Of a DNA stretch of 64,000 nucleotides, positions 50,199 to 58,809 are shown piece after piece. Where the stretch lies: NCBI GenBank assembly GCA_965115825.1, contig OZ220464.1:2808874-2872873 (forward strand), read 5' to 3'. The notes beneath the pieces were generated by a model. The model had not been told where the DNA came from. It did not search any database and worked only from the letters and a program-made list of their open reading frames with translations. A program made the position numbers and the translations under genes. How positions within the stretch are numbered: the stretch's first letter is position 1; each line of letters opens with the position of its first letter. The DNA comes from Dehalococcoidia bacterium (GTDB lineage: Bacteria; Chloroflexota; Dehalococcoidia; Lucifugimonadales; UBA3495).

Positions 50199-50900
50199 AT
50201 GACTACGACAACGCTGACGATGACCGGGATGCCGCCGGCGCGGCGGTTCACCCCGGAGGAGTGCGCCGTTATGGTACGGGCCGGCATCATCGCCCCGGGC
50301 GAGGAGGATTACGCGCTGGCCGGGCGCCGTCGTTTTACGGTGGACGAGTACATGGCTATGGGAGCGGCCGGGATCCTGCATAAGGACGACCGGGTTGAAT
50401 TGATAGACGGAGCGATAGTCATTATGCCGCCAATCGGCGACCGCCACGTGGGCGGCACAGACTGGATTAATACGCTGTTCGTCCCCCAGCTGTTGGGTCG
50501 GGCGACGGTGCAATTGGGCGGGCCTGTCTATCTGGGCGACCGCAGCGCGCCCCAGCCGGATGTTGTTCTCAAGAGGTGGAATCCGCCCGGTTCCGGCGCG
50601 ACCGGACGCGCGACGCCGGATGATGTGTACTTGGTCATAGAGTTCGCCGACAGTTCACTGACCTTTGACCAGGGCGCAAAGTTGGAACGCTACGCTGCCG
50701 CCGGCATTCCGGAGGTGTGGGTTGCCAACCTGCGCGCGCGGGAAGTGACGACCTACGCAGAGCCGACGGGTTCGGAGTACGTCGCCATCCGCATCTACCG
50801 GGCCGGCGAAAGCGTCAGCCCGCGGGCGTTTCCGGACGTGGCGCTGGCAGTTACGGATTTCATGCCGCCGGCTGACGCACAAAGCGATGAACCACTTTAG
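50199..50900 (+). CDS. Uma2 family endonuclease
   Basis: RFTVDEY..M, RVELIDG, PQPDV, LVIEFADSSL, YAAAGIPEVW. Confidence 0.88.
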   Translation: MTTTTLTMTGMPPARRFTPEECAVMVRAGIIAPGEEDYALAGRRRFTVDEYMAMGAAGILHKDDRVELIDGAIVIMPPIGDRHVGGTDWINTLFVPQLLGRATVQLGGPVYLGDRSAPQPDVVLKRWNPPGSGATGRATPDDVYLVIEFADSSLTFDQGAKLERYAAAGIPEVWVANLRAREVTTYAEPTGSEYVAIRIYRAGESVSPRAFPDVALAVTDFMPPADAQSDEPL

Positions 50901-52362: not shown

Positions 52363-53802
52363 ATGCCGCCCTCTGCCGAATCTGACGCCCCTCTGACATC
52401 CCGCCGCGCCTGGCGGACTTATGCGGTGGCGTCGTCGTCGGCGCTGGGCATGATGCTGGCGTCGCTGGACTTTTCGGTGAACGTGGGGCTGCCGGCCATG
52501 CGCGACGCCTTCGACACCGACCTGGCCGCCGTGCAGTGGGTCATTGTGGTGTTCATCGCCACGCGGGCCGGCCTGGCGTTGGGAGCGGGAGCCTTTGCCG
52601 ACCGTTTCGGGCTGCGGATGGTGTACCTGTTCGGCACGGCTGTCTATCTGGCGTCGATGGTATGCCTGTCGCTGTCGCCGACTCTTGAAGTCCTAGTGGG
52701 GTTCCGGTTCTTGCAGGCGTTGGGGACGGGATGCCTGTACAGCACTGCGCCGGCTATTGCCGCGGGCGTTTTTCCGCCCCATAGCCGGGGCTTATCCATG
52801 GGGTTCACCTCGGCCAGCCTGGGTTTGGGAATGGTGGCGTCAACACTGGCGGCAGGGCAACTGGTGCAGCTCTTTGACTGGCCGGCGGTGTTCTGGGGAC
52901 GCATACCGCTGGCCGCGCTGGCTCTGGCGATGGGGCTGTTGGCTCTGCCGGGGGTTATTGCGGGAGGCGCGCGGAGATCCCCGGGCCGGCGGTTTGACGC
53001 AGCGGGCGCGGCATTGGCCCTGTCGCTGCTGTGGTGCCTGACGATTGGGCTGCGGCTGGGCCAGGCCGTCGGCTGGACTGCGCCGGCGGTGATAGCGCTG
53101 CTGGCGGCGACGCCAATGACAGCGGGGGGGTTGATATTGGTGGAAAGGCGGGCGCAGTCGCCGGTGCTGCCCGGCGCGCTGGTTCGGCTCAGCGGATTCC
53201 AGACGGCTATGGGCGCCATGTTTCTGGGGCATTTCGCGCAGTTCGTCATCTGGTTCATATTCCCGTTCTACATCACCGATTCGCTGCGGCGCAGCCCGGT
53301 AACGTTGGGGATATTATTCGCCATAATGTCCATGTGCAACATACTTTCATCGCCGCTGGGCGGCTGGCTGTGCGACCGTTGGGGGGCGCGCCCGGTGGGA
53401 GCGGTCGGCTTGGGACTGACGGCGACGGGATTGCTGGCAATGTCAGCGCTGGATGGCGGCTCGGCCGTTTGGCATCCAGCGGCGGCAATCGCCATTGTGG
53501 GCCTGGGCGTGGGGTGGTTTCAGTCGGCGGCCTATGCGCTGATGCTGAGCAGCGTGCCGCCGGAGCGGTTCGGCACGGCGTCGGGAGCGATGTCGCTGGC
53601 GCAGGCGTCGGGAACGGTGCTGTGCGTGGCGATTGTAGGGGCGATTTTCGCGGCCCTGAGTGACCACTACGCGGGCAGCCGAGCGGCCGGCGAGGCGTTC
53701 CTGCTGGCCTACCGCGACGTATTTCGCATCGGAGCGACGATGGCGGCGCTGGGCGCGCTGTGGTTCGGCCTGCGGGCACCGCAGCCGGGCGCTGCTACCT
53801 GA
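52363..53802 (+). CDS. MFS transporter (DHA2-like)
   Basis: LDFSVNVGLP, GAFADRFG, GWLCDRWG, about 14 TMs. Confidence 0.88.
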   Translation: MPPSAESDAPLTSRRAWRTYAVASSSALGMMLASLDFSVNVGLPAMRDAFDTDLAAVQWVIVVFIATRAGLALGAGAFADRFGLRMVYLFGTAVYLASMVCLSLSPTLEVLVGFRFLQALGTGCLYSTAPAIAAGVFPPHSRGLSMGFTSASLGLGMVASTLAAGQLVQLFDWPAVFWGRIPLAALALAMGLLALPGVIAGGARRSPGRRFDAAGAALALSLLWCLTIGLRLGQAVGWTAPAVIALLAATPMTAGGLILVERRAQSPVLPGALVRLSGFQTAMGAMFLGHFAQFVIWFIFPFYITDSLRRSPVTLGILFAIMSMCNILSSPLGGWLCDRWGARPVGAVGLGLTATGLLAMSALDGGSAVWHPAAAIAIVGLGVGWFQSAAYALMLSSVPPERFGTASGAMSLAQASGTVLCVAIVGAIFAALSDHYAGSRAAGEAFLLAYRDVFRIGATMAALGALWFGLRAPQPGAAT

Positions 53803-53873
53803 CCGGGCCGGCAGCCAGAGCGCCGCCGGCCCGTCCCGCGGTGATGGCAACGAGGCAGGGACAGCAGGAGCCG

Positions 53874-54299
53874 TCAGGAGGGACGGTTGCGGCGTTCTTC
53901 CTCCCGCTCCTCGGCTTTGTCGCGCAGTGGGCGCCCCTTGTCGGGGGTTGGGTCTTTCACCAGGCCGTAGATGGCGCGGCCTTCGTGGTCTTCGGGGAGA
54001 TATTCCGTGATGGGCAGACCGCCCTCAGTCACGAAGAGCAGTCAATGGCAGTACTTGTAGATCTGCATATCGTCGCAGGCGCAGATCCAGGTGCGGTGCT
54101 TAATTTCCTCGCTCTTGTCGGGATAGAAGCGGCAGGGGCAGAGTGGCCGGCCGAGTTCGTCGACGTTCTGGGCCAAGCCGAGGATTACCGACTCGGCGAT
54201 TCCCTCTTCCGGGTGGGTGAAGGTGCCGGATTTTTCGCAGTAGCGCTCCACGAACAGGCGCATTCGCTGGATGGCTTTTTCGCTGGGCTGGTCAGCCAA
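53874..54299 (-). CDS. Ferredoxin-thioredoxin reductase catalytic-subunit homologue, probable selenoprotein (UGA at 54042-54044)
   Basis: LCPCR, ICAC, YCH-TGA-LLFV; frame stays open for 55 more codons; GAGGAGG RBS before the TTG start. Confidence 0.82.
54006..54033 (-). promoter_or_regulatory. Bacterial SECIS-like hairpin
   Basis: CGUGA-CUGA-GGGC-GGUCU-GCCC-A-UCACG; loop starts 21 nt after the UGA. Confidence 0.7.
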
Positions 54300-54461
54300 T
54301 TGGGGCCTCCTCAAGTTGTCCGGGTACGGCATACTCGGTCGCTGATGCAGCGGCGGAGCAGGATGCTACATAATAATGGGATGCGGCAAGTTCCGCAACG
54401 CCCGGCTGCCGGTTGCACCCCTGTCCCTCGCTTTTGAGGGAGGGGGCTGATTTCCGCGAGG

Positions 54462-55304
54462 TTACCAGACTATCAGGTTCCAGCAGTTGCCGGCAGCGTT
54501 GCACGTTAGGCTGCGGAGCTTGCCGCCCAGGGGTATGTCTTCAAAGTCGTCGGTTACGATGAGCCAGTAGGACTCGCCGGCTACCAGTTCTTCCAATGTG
54601 TTGAGGCCGGCGAACTCGGGGCGGTGGTCGTAGAACATATACTCCTTGCTGATGTTGTCAAAGTAGAGCACGGCTGCCAGCTTGTCGCCCAGCGGGGCCA
54701 GGGCTTCGGCTATCGAGGCGTCCGCATCTTTGTCGATCCGGATGTCCACCTTTGAAAATGGGCCGATGCCGGCGGAGTTCCTGGCCGCCACCTCGAATCT
54801 CCACCAATAGTTGTGGTCGCTCCAGTCTTTGTTAATCCCGTATATCACGCCTGAGAATTCAGTCGGATAATTCGGGTGCAGGCTGTGCTTCCAATTGGGA
54901 ACGTCGAGAGCCCGGGACAAGGCGCCGATAGTAGCGGCCTTTCCACCCCTCCAGCTCTTGAAGTAATAGGAGGTAACGGGGCTGCCTCCATTATCCGCCG
55001 GCAGATCCCAGTTAATATAGATTTCAGCCGCGGGCCAATTGCCAGTGTAGCCGTAGCTGCTATTGGTGGCGGCGCCGCGCGCCAGATTTTCCTCGGGGCT
55101 AAACCACTCCAATTGCGTTGCCGTTAGGTTCCGGACCGGGCCGGGCGCGGTTGCCGCCGGGGTTCCCGATGCGGAGGCGCTGCCGGCCTGGGCGCTGGCA
55201 GGGTTTGGGTCAGGTGGGGCGAGGAGGGTTAGGGCGCCGACGATGGCGAGGGCTGCTATGGCCAGCGGCACTGACAACTTAAGTTTGTGCAGTTTGGGTT
55301 TCAT
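54462..55304 (-). CDS. Secreted FN3-domain surface protein, short paralogue
   Basis: Signal peptide, PGPVRNL..WDLPADNGGSPVTSY..FEVAARNSAG.GP, C-terminal ..NCWNLIVW domain. Confidence 0.82.
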   Translation of the reverse strand: MKPKLHKLKLSVPLAIAALAIVGALTLLAPPDPNPASAQAGSASASGTPAATAPGPVRNLTATQLEWFSPEENLARGAATNSSYGYTGNWPAAEIYINWDLPADNGGSPVTSYYFKSWRGGKAATIGALSRALDVPNWKHSLHPNYPTEFSGVIYGINKDWSDHNYWWRFEVAARNSAGIGPFSKVDIRIDKDADASIAEALAPLGDKLAAVLYFDNISKEYMFYDHRPEFAGLNTLEELVAGESYWLIVTDDFEDIPLGGKLRSLTCNAAGNCWNLIVW

Positions 55305-55443
55305 TAGACAGAACTTCCTCGGTCGCTGATGCAGCGGCGGAGCAGGGCGCTACATAATAATGGGATACGGCAAGTTCCGCAACGCCCGGCTGCCGGCTGC
55401 TCCCTCTCCCTCGCTTTTGAGGAAGGGGGCTGATTTCCGCAGA

Positions 55444-58400
55444 TTACCAGACAATCAGGTTCCAGCAGTTGCCGGCGGCGTTGCACGTTAGGCTGCGGCT
55501 CTTGCCGCCCAAGGGTATGTTCTTAAACTCGTCGGTTACCAGGAGCCAGTAGGACTCGCCGGCTTCCAGCACCTCCAGGGTGTTGAGGTCGGCGAACTCC
55601 GGACGCGGGTCGTAGAACAGCCAATCCCTGCTGAGGCCGTTAAAGTAGAAGACGGCGCCCGCGCTGTCCCCCAGCGCAGCCAGCGCCACGGCTACCGGAG
55701 TGTCGATGAATAGGCCTCTCGGGTAATGGATTACCAGGCTGCCCACGGCTACCGTGTTGTTGACCTCCAGCAGGATGCTGTACGTGCCGGGGTCAAAGCC
55801 GGGGATGATGACGTCTGCCACAGTGACGGCGCCGTCGCGGTCAGTGCTGGGGGGTTCGGTAGGCATGGCGGACATAAGGTCCCGACCGTGGATTTCGATT
55901 CGGCTGATGCGGGAATGCGCCGGCATATTCTCCACCGACAGCGTGATTTTGTCGCCGGGGCTACCTTCGCCGGGATAAACCATTATGATGGACGATGGCA
56001 CTTTGTACTCGCCATGTCGGACAAGGTTATCGTACCTGGCCTCAATGCTGATGGTGGAGGGGATGGGGACGCTGTTGTCCACCTGGTGCTTGATGGACCA
56101 GCGGCCCGAACCATCGGCTTGCACGCTGTACTCCCGCATCCGTTCGCCATCGGTGACCGTGACGGTGATGGCCTCAATGAGGTTTTCCGGGTTGTCCACG
56201 GGCCAGTTTGCGCCGGAGATTTTTACGATGTCCCGGGGGCCGGCCCCGTCGGGCGTGGTCTTGACGGTGGGCTCGGGGATGGTGATTTCGACTTCGCCCG
56301 GGATGCCTTTCTTGTCCTCAACTCTGATGGTGTGCCGGCCGGGCGTCAGGGTCGGGTTGGAGGTGTCGTCATCGGCAGGCCAGAGGGCTACGGGGCAGAC
56401 GAACTGCCCTCCGCTGGACACTGGAACTTCTTCGGTCGTGGCCGTGCAGCCGTCGGATTCGTCGTGCAAGTGGAGCGGCACGTCGTCGATGGTGATTTTC
56501 TCGGGCATGATGCCGCTGCCGCTGCCGAAGCCCGCTCCTATGAGCGTAATCCGCTCGTTGGGCAGTACTTCATTCTTGCTGACGTTTAGGTTTAGGATGG
56601 CGGGCAGGATGGTTACTTTGGCGTCTTCGGACTTGGCGCCCCACTGGGCGTCAACGCGCTTGACGCCTTGCTGCGGAGGCAGTTTGAAGGTGGCCGTGGC
56701 GGAGCCGTCGGAGCTGATGCTGGTGGCACGTATGCCATCCTTGATGACGACGCCGCCTACTTTCAGCCCCATGAAGGGCGCTCCGGGAGCGGGGAAGTCC
56801 TGGGTGAAGATGGTTACCTCGTCGCCGACGCGGCCCTCGTTGGGCGATATGCGGATGGACGGGGCGAGCTCGAAGTCCTCAACGTCCTCGCCGGAGGTGC
56901 GGCCTTCGCTGTCTGCCACACAGATGAGGTTGTGGTTGCCGGGCTTGAAGGGCGGGATGGTAACCTCAAAGGAGATGGCTACCCGGCCGTAGCTGCCTAC
57001 GGTGGCGCTGCCGACCTCGGTTCCGGCGGGGATGACGCCATGCTCGCAGAGGTGGCGGGCGATAACCTTGTCGCTAGATGCCTTGTTTTTGTCGGCGACG
57101 GTGTAGGTCATCTCGGCGGTATCCAGTGTGTAGTGGAAGCAGAACTCGTTGCCGGCGGCCATTTCGGTTTTCCGGCTGTCGCAGTTCAGGGTGTTCCACC
57201 ACTGGGCTACGGCGAACTCGGCGTCTTGGCGCTGAGCGACGTAAGCGGTGGCGATGGCGCCATTGTTGAAGCCGCTGCCGTTGACGGTGAGCGGCTCGTT
57301 GCGCTTGCCGTCGGTGTCGGAGAGGGAGATTTTGGCGAGGGTGTTGAGGTACACGCCTTGCCGTTTCTCGATGGATCCGGCGGCGGCGCTGCGCTCAATG
57401 CCGTTGGCCATGAGCCGCTCGATGCGTCCGGGGAGGGTGTCATCAAAGCGGAGGACGTCGAAGGCGACGGTGTGGTTTCCCGCTTCGGAGGGGTTCCTGA
57501 CGCGGGAGGCGCCCAGGATGAACATGGTCAAGTCCTGACCCCTTTCGAACCCGTTGGGGTCTTCGCAGGCGTCGGAGTCTCCGGCGCACATATCTGGGAT
57601 GCGGGTGGTTATGCTGACGTCGTCCTTGTCGTCGTCATAGTAGGCGTTGGTGTCAATCTCCGGGGCGACGGTGGCCGGGGAGTTGGCGACGAAGTAGATT
57701 GAGCTGGCCGGGATGGAATCGGGGACATCAAAGTCGTCTTCCAGGAAGAGTACGACGCCGGAGCCTACCGGCAGGTCGGCGGCCAGGTTGTTCAGCTTGA
57801 CGGTGAGTTTGGGCGCTCCGCCGGACCTGGCTCTGTCGGATGCAATCGTGCCGCTGAAATCGGTGGTAGTAGAGTCCGGTATCGTATCTCTGCCGATACG
57901 GATGGTAACCGACGTAAATGGGCCGGCGCCGGCGGAGTTGTTGGCCGCCACTTCGAACTTCCACTGAAGGTTGTGGTCGCCTCTGCCAGCGGTAGCCCCA
58001 GTGTCCAGGGTCACGTCATCGAACCGAGTCGGATAATTCGGGTGATTGGTGTTCTTCCACTCGCGTGTGGCTGCGTCGTGAATGGGGGTCAGGGATCCAG
58101 TGGTAGTGGTCGTTCCGCCTGTGTAGCTCTTAAAGTGATAGGAGGTAACTGGGCTGCCCCCATTATCCGCCGGCAGATCCCAACCAACGAAGATGATAGT
58201 TGCGGGCGAATTGACAGTGGCGGCGCCGGATGCAGCGGCGACGCGCGCCACATTTTCCGCGGCGGTGAACCATGCCACCTGCGTTGCCTTTAGGTTCCGG
58301 ACTGAGCCGGGCGTGGTGGCCGCCGGAGTTCCCGTTGCGGAAGTACTCCACGGGCTGGCGGTATTGGCGCAGGTGACGCGCATCTGCACTTCGTAGGCTT

Positions 58401-58809
58401 GGCTGTTGGTGAGGCCTGCGATGCGCGCGGGGCCGGCGAGGTTGCGCCGGTTGACGGTAATCTCGCCGGTGAAGGTTGTCCAGGCTCCGGAGGTTCCCTG
58501 CCGGTATAGCATACCGAAGCCGGTGTATTCGGGGTTGCCGTTGGTGGCAGTGGCGGAGTCGCCTTCCACTGCGGCGGGGAGCATTACGTTCAGGGCCATG
58601 TTGTGGGCCGTCAGGGTGGGGGCGGCCGGCCCAGAAGTGGGGGTAGTTCGGAAGCCGGAGCCGCCTTCAGCGCAGGCGCCGGCTTGGGCGCTGGCCGGGC
58701 CGGGGTTCGGTAGCGCCAGTAGGCCGAGGAGGATCAGGGCGCCGACGATGGCGAGGGTTGTTATGGCCGGGAGCTCTGACCGCTTGAGTTTTTGCAGCTT
58801 GGGTTTCAT
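55444..58809 (-). CDS. Large secreted surface/S-layer-like protein with FN3 and Ig-like domains
   Basis: Signal peptide, two FN3 domains, repeated 'ITLxGxGF' Ig/TIG-like units, same C-terminal domain. Confidence 0.82.
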   Translation of the reverse strand: MKPKLQKLKRSELPAITTLAIVGALILLGLLALPNPGPASAQAGACAEGGSGFRTTPTSGPAAPTLTAHNMALNVMLPAAVEGDSATATNGNPEYTGFGMLYRQGTSGAWTTFTGEITVNRRNLAGPARIAGLTNSQAYEVQMRVTCANTASPWSTSATGTPAATTPGSVRNLKATQVAWFTAAENVARVAAASGAATVNSPATIIFVGWDLPADNGGSPVTSYHFKSYTGGTTTTTGSLTPIHDAATREWKNTNHPNYPTRFDDVTLDTGATAGRGDHNLQWKFEVAANNSAGAGPFTSVTIRIGRDTIPDSTTTDFSGTIASDRARSGGAPKLTVKLNNLAADLPVGSGVVLFLEDDFDVPDSIPASSIYFVANSPATVAPEIDTNAYYDDDKDDVSITTRIPDMCAGDSDACEDPNGFERGQDLTMFILGASRVRNPSEAGNHTVAFDVLRFDDTLPGRIERLMANGIERSAAAGSIEKRQGVYLNTLAKISLSDTDGKRNEPLTVNGSGFNNGAIATAYVAQRQDAEFAVAQWWNTLNCDSRKTEMAAGNEFCFHYTLDTAEMTYTVADKNKASSDKVIARHLCEHGVIPAGTEVGSATVGSYGRVAISFEVTIPPFKPGNHNLICVADSEGRTSGEDVEDFELAPSIRISPNEGRVGDEVTIFTQDFPAPGAPFMGLKVGGVVIKDGIRATSISSDGSATATFKLPPQQGVKRVDAQWGAKSEDAKVTILPAILNLNVSKNEVLPNERITLIGAGFGSGSGIMPEKITIDDVPLHLHDESDGCTATTEEVPVSSGGQFVCPVALWPADDDTSNPTLTPGRHTIRVEDKKGIPGEVEITIPEPTVKTTPDGAGPRDIVKISGANWPVDNPENLIEAITVTVTDGERMREYSVQADGSGRWSIKHQVDNSVPIPSTISIEARYDNLVRHGEYKVPSSIIMVYPGEGSPGDKITLSVENMPAHSRISRIEIHGRDLMSAMPTEPPSTDRDGAVTVADVIIPGFDPGTYSILLEVNNTVAVGSLVIHYPRGLFIDTPVAVALAALGDSAGAVFYFNGLSRDWLFYDPRPEFADLNTLEVLEAGESYWLLVTDEFKNIPLGGKSRSLTCNAAGNCWNLIVW

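Follow-up and report, generated by a model that had tools for sequence, protein, structure and literature searches.

Ferredoxin-thioredoxin reductase (FTR) is best characterised from plants and cyanobacteria, where a catalytic chain with the cysteine signature CPC-x16-CPC-x8-CHC is accompanied by a variable chain that is described as exclusive to oxygenic phototrophs and may shield the cluster (PMC9025218). Single-gene relatives without a variable chain are represented by the ferredoxin:disulfide reductase of Methanosarcina acetivorans (4tpu) and the Grx-FDR fusion of Desulfotalea psychrophila (7pwe), which have fused rubredoxin or glutaredoxin domains and no selenocysteine (Sec).

FTR-like selenoproteins were first predicted in 2008 from ocean metagenomes by Zhang and Gladyshev (PMC2398784), and both of the published reads were double-Sec, CPU...CPC...CIU, with Sec at CPU and CIU, which the authors identify as the two redox-active Cys positions (PMC2398784, supplement 2). 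In NCBIfam the double-Sec form is NF041072 ('FtrB family double-selenoprotein'). A 2022 review has an entry 'Ferredoxin-thioredoxin reductase, COG4802, CxU', which gives no Sec count, and the sole FTR entry in the table of a 2026 review is the double-Sec form (CxU, two Sec). A single-Sec subfamily appears in neither NCBIfam nor the 2026 table, nor did we find it in print in the literature on FTR or SAR202 with selenocysteine, to which further papers and supplements may be relevant.

Here we describe an FTR-like gene in a window of 64,000 nucleotides from the genome of a marine, SAR202-type Dehalococcoidia bacterium, a single 3.27-Mb contig, whose product belongs to a single-Sec subfamily of this selenoprotein type known since 2008. 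From the sequence we predict that it is a genuine selenoprotein gene, since its in-frame TGA stands at an FTR cysteine and is followed by a hairpin, the genome encodes the machinery for Sec, relatives carry TGA or a Cys codon at the same site, and the hairpin is associated with the TGA codon across those relatives. The preliminary description of the window had called the gene a hidden selenoprotein, a reading that our analysis supports, although its kind is not new, FTR-like selenoproteins having been in print since 2008.

Gene structure and reading frame

Standard ORF calling divides the locus into a 96-codon minus-strand ORF (54332..54042), which ends ...CACDDMQIYKYCH and then TGA, and a second ORF of 52 codons downstream in the same frame, starting from a GTG at 54032. 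Translated with TGA as selenocysteine (U), the whole gene lies on the minus strand at 53874..54299 and comprises 141 codons and a terminal TGA, with Sec at residue 86 (codon 54044-54042). The residues flanking Sec are ...YCH-U-LLFVTEGGLPITEYLPEDHEGR, and read-through begins LLFVTEGG... and continues for exactly 55 codons to the second TGA (53874..53876, minus strand), where relatives stop at the same position with TAA, TAG or TGA. These results agree in every particular with the preliminary description, which had given the same span, an ORF that stops at YKYCH, and a continuation of LLFV.. and 55 open codons past the TGA.

Translation most likely begins with the TTG at 54297..54299 (minus strand). 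A start codon occupies the homologous position in 98 of 100 related rows (TTG 55, ATG 29, GTG 14), the remaining 2 having ACG, and the Shine-Dalgarno sequence GAGGAGG, read directly at 54306..54312 on the minus strand, six bases 5' of the start, has a similar motif 5' of the homologous start in 98 of the 100 rows. The protein carries the signature CPC-x16-CAC-x8-CHU, formed on the minus strand by CPC at residues 54-56 (54132..54140), CAC at residues 73-75 (54075..54083) and CHU at residues 84-86 (54042..54050), and ends in a subfamily-specific C-terminal extension, codons 93-141 (53877..54023, minus strand), reading GGLPITEYLPEDHEGR...EEREEERRNRPS. A promoter and terminator consensus scan of 53750-54520 returned none.

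Relationship to ferredoxin-thioredoxin reductases

The protein matches the Pfam family of FTR catalytic beta chains (PF02943, FeThRed_B) at 79 bits against a cut-off of 22 (E 3.2e-22), and its gene is the only PF02943 copy in the genome. Over residues 4-92 it finds the Arabidopsis catalytic chain (7bzk, E 1.3e-24) and the Synechocystis chain (1dj7, E 3.2e-21) among PDB sequences, and catalytic chains of solved structure (1dj7, 2pvo, 7bzk) share its fold, about 40-46% identity over those residues and the CPC-x16-CxC-x8-CH(C/U) spacing. In the HMMER alignments to 7bzk_A and 1dj7_A, its CPC, CAC and CHU stand on CPC, CPC and CHC, so that all six cysteine columns of the FTR signature are aligned, with Sec as the sixth and Ala in place of the second Pro. 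The first CPC aligns with Cys55 and Cys57 of the Synechocystis enzyme; across 36 diverse homologues its C54 does not vary, and its C56 is kept in at least 90%. The U86 column pairs with the last Cys of CHC, Cys87 in 1dj7 numbering, in keeping with the earlier proposal that the TGA sits at the second Cys of that motif.

An AlphaFold model built with the 36 homologues has a mean pLDDT of 86.6 and a pTM of 0.80; superposition gives an rmsd of 1.9 A with 7c3f_A (89 columns) and of 2.1 A with 1dj7_A (88 columns). The top ten Foldseek matches are all FTR catalytic chains with probability 1.00, and 4tpu and 7pwe follow at ranks 11-12; they are weak but real matches in fold and also in sequence (E 5.1e-06), of much lower similarity. 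The PDB sequence matches stop at residue 92 and the low-rmsd alignments to 7c3f_A and 1dj7_A span just 88-89 columns; the extension (residues 93-141) has no counterpart in solved FTR chains, yet it is conserved among relatives, and the model gives mean pLDDT values of 93, 92 and 90 for the three 10-residue blocks from residue 91 to 120.

Compared with plant and cyanobacterial FTR, then, the protein has Sec for the last Cys, CAC for the second CPC, a 49-residue extension and no variable chain, and its host lineage, judged by its relatives, is described as Dehalococcoidia or SAR202. The variable-chain family PF02941 had no match in the genome, which is 95.1% complete, and was matched in the Synechococcus control; as no variable chain was found there, the quaternary structure would differ from that of characterised FTR. 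The genome also encodes an NADPH thioredoxin reductase (352.9 bits), so the FTR-like enzyme need not be the general thioredoxin reductase.

Like the double-Sec form, the protein is a homologue of the FTR catalytic chain (COG4802/PF02943) with Sec as the last residue of the third Cys motif (CxU), and the double-Sec form likewise occurs in marine metagenomes and in the same taxonomic order. The two forms are about 30% identical and differ in the first motif (CPC here, with TGC at the second Cys; CPU in NF041072), in the third motif (CHU against CIU), in spacing (the canonical x16/x8 against x14/x12) and in the C-terminal extension. Membership in NF041072 was rejected, the protein scoring 46.1 bits against a cut-off of 160 and having one Sec, not two. 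True double-Sec FtrB was found in all five genomes tested from other families of the order, at 213-220 bits and with two TGA codons each. In these genes (loci L125-L129 in genomes G035, G033, G025, G037 and G028; CPU...CPC...CIU) the motif region is nearly identical to the 2008 reads, which makes the order a likely source of those ocean-metagenome reads.

Selenocysteine and cysteine forms among relatives

Cys orthologues, annotated as 'ferredoxin:thioredoxin reductase' in SAR202 and Chloroflexota MAGs, belong to the same subfamily: they have 141 residues, are 75-86% identical over the full length and share the start and the extension, and differ in having TGC or TGT for the TGA. The pairing of Cys codons with TGA among homologues, which the preliminary description had proposed to examine, was found in each set of relatives. 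Within the same genus, TGA occurs at 17 of 20 loci and TGC at 3 (19 genomes and the window's own), and the best 80 loci from a scan of species-representative genomes comprise 33 with TGA, 42 with TGC and 5 with TGT. In that scan 524 of the 590 matching stretches encoded a relative; the related stretches are labelled Dehalococcoidia, SAR202 cluster or Chloroflexota, with a few Acidobacteriota and one Proteobacteria MAG. Some genomes occur in both sets, and removal of 16 rows with identical CDS left 84 distinct orthologous CDS, of which 37 have TGA and 47 TGC or TGT. One record, OZ253455.1, holds two copies of the 141-residue gene (L090 and L093), both of the Cys form.

A quick maximum-likelihood tree of the 84 CDS, from which the Sec codon and the next 45 nt were left out, places the window's gene in an all-U clade of 33 rows (SH-aLRT 95), with the four other U rows in a second clade of 11. 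The tree requires at least four changes between the U and C states, three of them forced by well-supported branches. When genomes of the order were drawn evenly, 54 of 401 had a close orthologue (E <= 1e-20) and 4 of these 54 had TGA, which indicates that the Cys form is commoner overall and that the Sec form is found chiefly in the window's genus.

These comparisons bear directly on the possibility that the TGA is a true stop, so that the locus would yield an 85-residue truncated protein and possibly, beginning with the GTG at 54032, a second product of 52 residues. Standard ORF calling does yield exactly these two ORFs, and the public gene calls of relatives end ...CH, but we judge this reading highly improbable. 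A single uninterrupted polypeptide is encoded in 47 of the 84 distinct orthologues, and the frame and residues past the TGA are kept in all 37 U rows, none of which has a further stop there. Across these rows, extra synonymous codon types number 116 and extra residue types 39 in the 55 codons past the TGA, a ratio similar to that of the 84 upstream codons (158 against 57), and this mostly synonymous change, together with the absence of further stops, indicates that the tail is translated. A truncated product would also lack one of the two redox-active residues, and the presence of a hairpin and of Sec machinery, described below, speaks further against termination. The alternation of TGA with Cys, the conservation of the frame past it and the hairpin are all seen again in dozens of related genomes, which is more than chance.

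The hairpin after the selenocysteine codon

A SECIS-type hairpin occupies 54004..54035 on the minus strand. Counting the U of UGA as +1, its lower stem pairs +10..+16 with +35..+41, its upper stem is GGGC/GCCC, and its apical loop, GGUCU, lies at +25..+29 (54020-54016); the RNA after UGA reads CUGCUC-UUCGUGA-CUGA-GGGC-GGUCU-GCCC-A-UCACGGA. The preliminary description had recognised the GGUCU apical loop, which stands, and had let the hairpin begin 8 nt downstream, a figure that is approximate, since six bases separate the Sec codon from the first base of the lower stem, at +10. Folded as a single 76-nt sequence, the region did no better than its shuffles (z = -0.52), and the case for the hairpin thus rests on comparison across genomes and not on energy alone. 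Rfam, searched with E up to 10 over 53800-54500, gave no match, a null into which we read nothing given its poor coverage of bacterial SECIS elements.

Across genomes, the mean fold energy of +13..+38 (26 nt) is -7.8 kcal/mol for 34 distinct Sec-type sequences and -3.3 for 46 distinct Cys-type sequences. Of the 34 distinct Sec-type downstream sequences, 30 have a hairpin with at least 4 bp whose loop begins with GG at +25, compared with 3 of the 46 Cys-type ones (absent in 43). This contrast overstates independence, because the Sec rows are close kin from essentially two lineages and cannot be counted as separate events. In the other four Sec-type sequences the hairpin is 3 bp long or mismatched. 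Within the large U clade the hairpin is kept in two versions, GGGC-GGUCU-GCCC (encoding EGGLP) and GGCA-GGUC-UGCC (EAGLP), and the second U clade has GGAA-GGA-UUCC, with the lower stem GUGA/UCAC changed to GUUA/UAAC via two synonymous changes.

The likeness to the SECIS of E. coli fdhF, also raised in the preliminary description, is borne out in placement and loop. The fdhF hairpin likewise lies inside the CDS, with GGUC(U) at its apex some 20-25 nt past the UGA: in the K-12 record the sequence after UGA140 reads ...GGUUGCAGGUCUGCACC..., with GCA-GGUC-UGC at +19..+28 and GGUC itself at +22..+25, compared with +25..+29 for GGUCU here. The stem sequence of the FTR-like hairpin differs from that of fdhF, and the variant found in relatives, GGCAGGUCUGCC, has GCAGGUCUGC in common with it. 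In fdhF, a bulged U in the hairpin is important for E. coli SelB.

Selenocysteine machinery and other selenoprotein genes

The Sec machinery of the genome, for which the preliminary description had suggested a search, is complete, with selA, selB, selC and selD all above curated cut-offs. The tRNA-Sec gene scores 66.4 bits against an Rfam cut-off of 47 and is called SeC with anticodon TCA by ARAGORN; selA scores 557.8 bits, selB, in a 644-codon frame, scores 354.9 bits with its neighbouring match, and selD (377.7 bits) has an in-frame TGA of its own, in ...HCAG-U-AAK. The UGSC family has seven matches in the genome, two of them above the cut-off, with one TGA each, and the Rdx/SelW-like family has two matches, with one TGA each. 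All 11 in-frame TGA sites that we examined are followed by a hairpin with its loop roughly 20-30 nt downstream. The genome is rich in selenoprotein genes, with examples outside the window at 2325215-2325652, 1335863-1336300, 445134-445343, 721726-721950 and 1412818-1413738 of the contig (G000:C1).

That UGA86 is read as an ordinary amino acid such as Cys or Trp, through near-cognate decoding or suppression, is a reading to which we give very little weight. Nothing specific favours it beyond the general point that a sequence by itself cannot tell which residue is inserted, and it is opposed by the use of TGA as an ordinary terminator in this genome, even for the FTR-like gene itself, by the dedicated tRNA-Sec, selA, selB and selD, by a SelB-type hairpin spaced from the codon as in E. 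coli fdhF, and by the location of the codon at a redox-active Cys position, a typical site of Sec/Cys exchange. A nonsense mutation, pseudogene or sequencing error peculiar to this assembly, for which nothing speaks beyond the stop itself, is already refuted by the TGA in 33 of the 80 best related loci, in 17 of 20 same-genus loci and throughout the 33-row clade, and its probability is negligible.

Proposed mechanism

Taking UGA86 as a Sec codon, we consider it very probable that the gene encodes a single-subunit, 141-residue FTR homologue in which SelB and tRNA-Sec decode UGA86 by means of the hairpin within the CDS, and in which C56 and U86 would form a selenenylsulfide at a [4Fe-4S] cluster. 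The gene, its fold family, the Sec/Cys alternation, the hairpin and the Sec machinery are results of the analysis; we infer cluster binding, electron donor, substrate, oligomeric state and the roles of C56 and U86, which would combine as follows. Directed by the hairpin just after the codon, SelB and tRNA-Sec would insert Sec at UGA86. By homology, C54, C73, C75 and C84 would hold the [4Fe-4S] cluster, and the redox-active bond next to it would join C56 to U86 and be a selenenylsulfide in place of a disulfide. Ferredoxin would give two successive single electrons, and the bond would be opened through the cluster; the exposed thiol of C56 would then attack a disulfide of thioredoxin or a similar substrate, and the selenolate of U86 would stay beside the cluster and resolve the mixed disulfide. 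In classical FTR, work by Dai et al. of 2000 and 2007 reportedly identified Cys87 as the partner nearest the cluster, which bonds iron in a one-electron intermediate, and Cys57 is said by the same authors to attack thioredoxin.

Since Sec in the double-Sec proteins stands at the redox-active CPU and CIU positions, U86 would also occupy a redox-active position. The suggestion in the preliminary description that Sec is placed at an Fe-S-linked active site is consistent with this, as the residue would be at the redox-active Cys of an FTR-type motif, beside the cluster ligands. Selenium would replace just one of the two sulfurs in one-electron Fe-S disulfide splitting, which makes the subfamily a natural experiment: the closely related Cys versions provide controls against which the contribution of selenium could be seen. 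With this gene, a selenoprotein type known only in a two-selenium version gains one with a single selenium.

A more speculative extension of this scheme combines three proposals, and we think it rather unlikely that all three hold: that the cluster-side selenolate binds the special iron in the one-electron intermediate, that the extension shields the cluster in place of the missing variable chain, and that CH-U is much more widespread. If true, the selenolate and the shielding extension would let a single-subunit FTR work in oxygen-exposed SAR202 bacteria, both marine and sponge-associated.

Annotation and distribution

Ordinary gene callers miss or truncate this gene, as the preliminary description had expected of standard pipelines. 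Among the 150 matches listed from 1.84 billion representative proteins, 13 stop at query residue 85, which is their own last residue, and all 13 end ...K(Y/F)CH; these short representatives belong to different 50%-identity clusters and are known from protein sequences alone. They include proteins with differing motifs, such as CPCNFYPDP...WVCACDEMQKYKYCH and CPCMFFEDK...WICPCEEMQRWKYCH. Our findings suggest that gene calls are truncated at the same position well beyond the single-Sec subfamily, and that Sec may occur at CH-U in several divergent FTR-like subfamilies. In some of the short representatives (P0132, P0152, P0154-P0156, P0158, P0160, P0165, P0180, P0190, P0211, P0217 and P0247 make up the set), the N-terminal parts look unrelated to FTR, and their starts may be miscalled.

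At E <= 1e-10, the query matched 2,491 of 2,500 candidate protein clusters; the best 120 full-length matches are all 0.55-1.75 times the query in length, and those with a name are called ferredoxin:thioredoxin reductase. Recognition of the Sec codon puts right the annotation of a gene often met in marine Dehalococcoidia and SAR202 genomes, with about two in five of the related loci examined carrying the TGA form.

Genomic surroundings

The FTR-like gene has no operon partner. When the ORFs of 81 loci were clustered, none except those of the gene itself and of an antisense artefact extended to more than 23 of them, and no thioredoxin or ferredoxin appeared as a conserved neighbour across the 81 loci to point to a substrate. 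Its flanking genes in the window encode an MFS transporter and unnamed secreted proteins.

The stretches 54334-54617 and 55318-55599 are copies, 88-95% identical, of one segment of about 285 nt, which consists of the last 159 nt of two paralogous genes and the roughly 125 nt that follow each of them; most of the spacer upstream of the FTR-like gene belongs to the copy at 54334-54457. The paralogues (54462-55304 and 55444-58809, both on the minus strand, both ending ...CNAAGNCWNLIVW) encode products of 280 and 1121 residues with similar hydrophobic, signal-peptide-like N-termini and identical C-terminal tails, and neither has a Pfam match at E <= 0.001. Elsewhere in the window, at 50199-50900 on the plus strand, a gene for a Uma2-family putative restriction endonuclease (Pfam PF05685, E 4.8e-29) has an acetyl-CoA synthetase-like gene on one side and a gene for a coiled-coil protein on the other.
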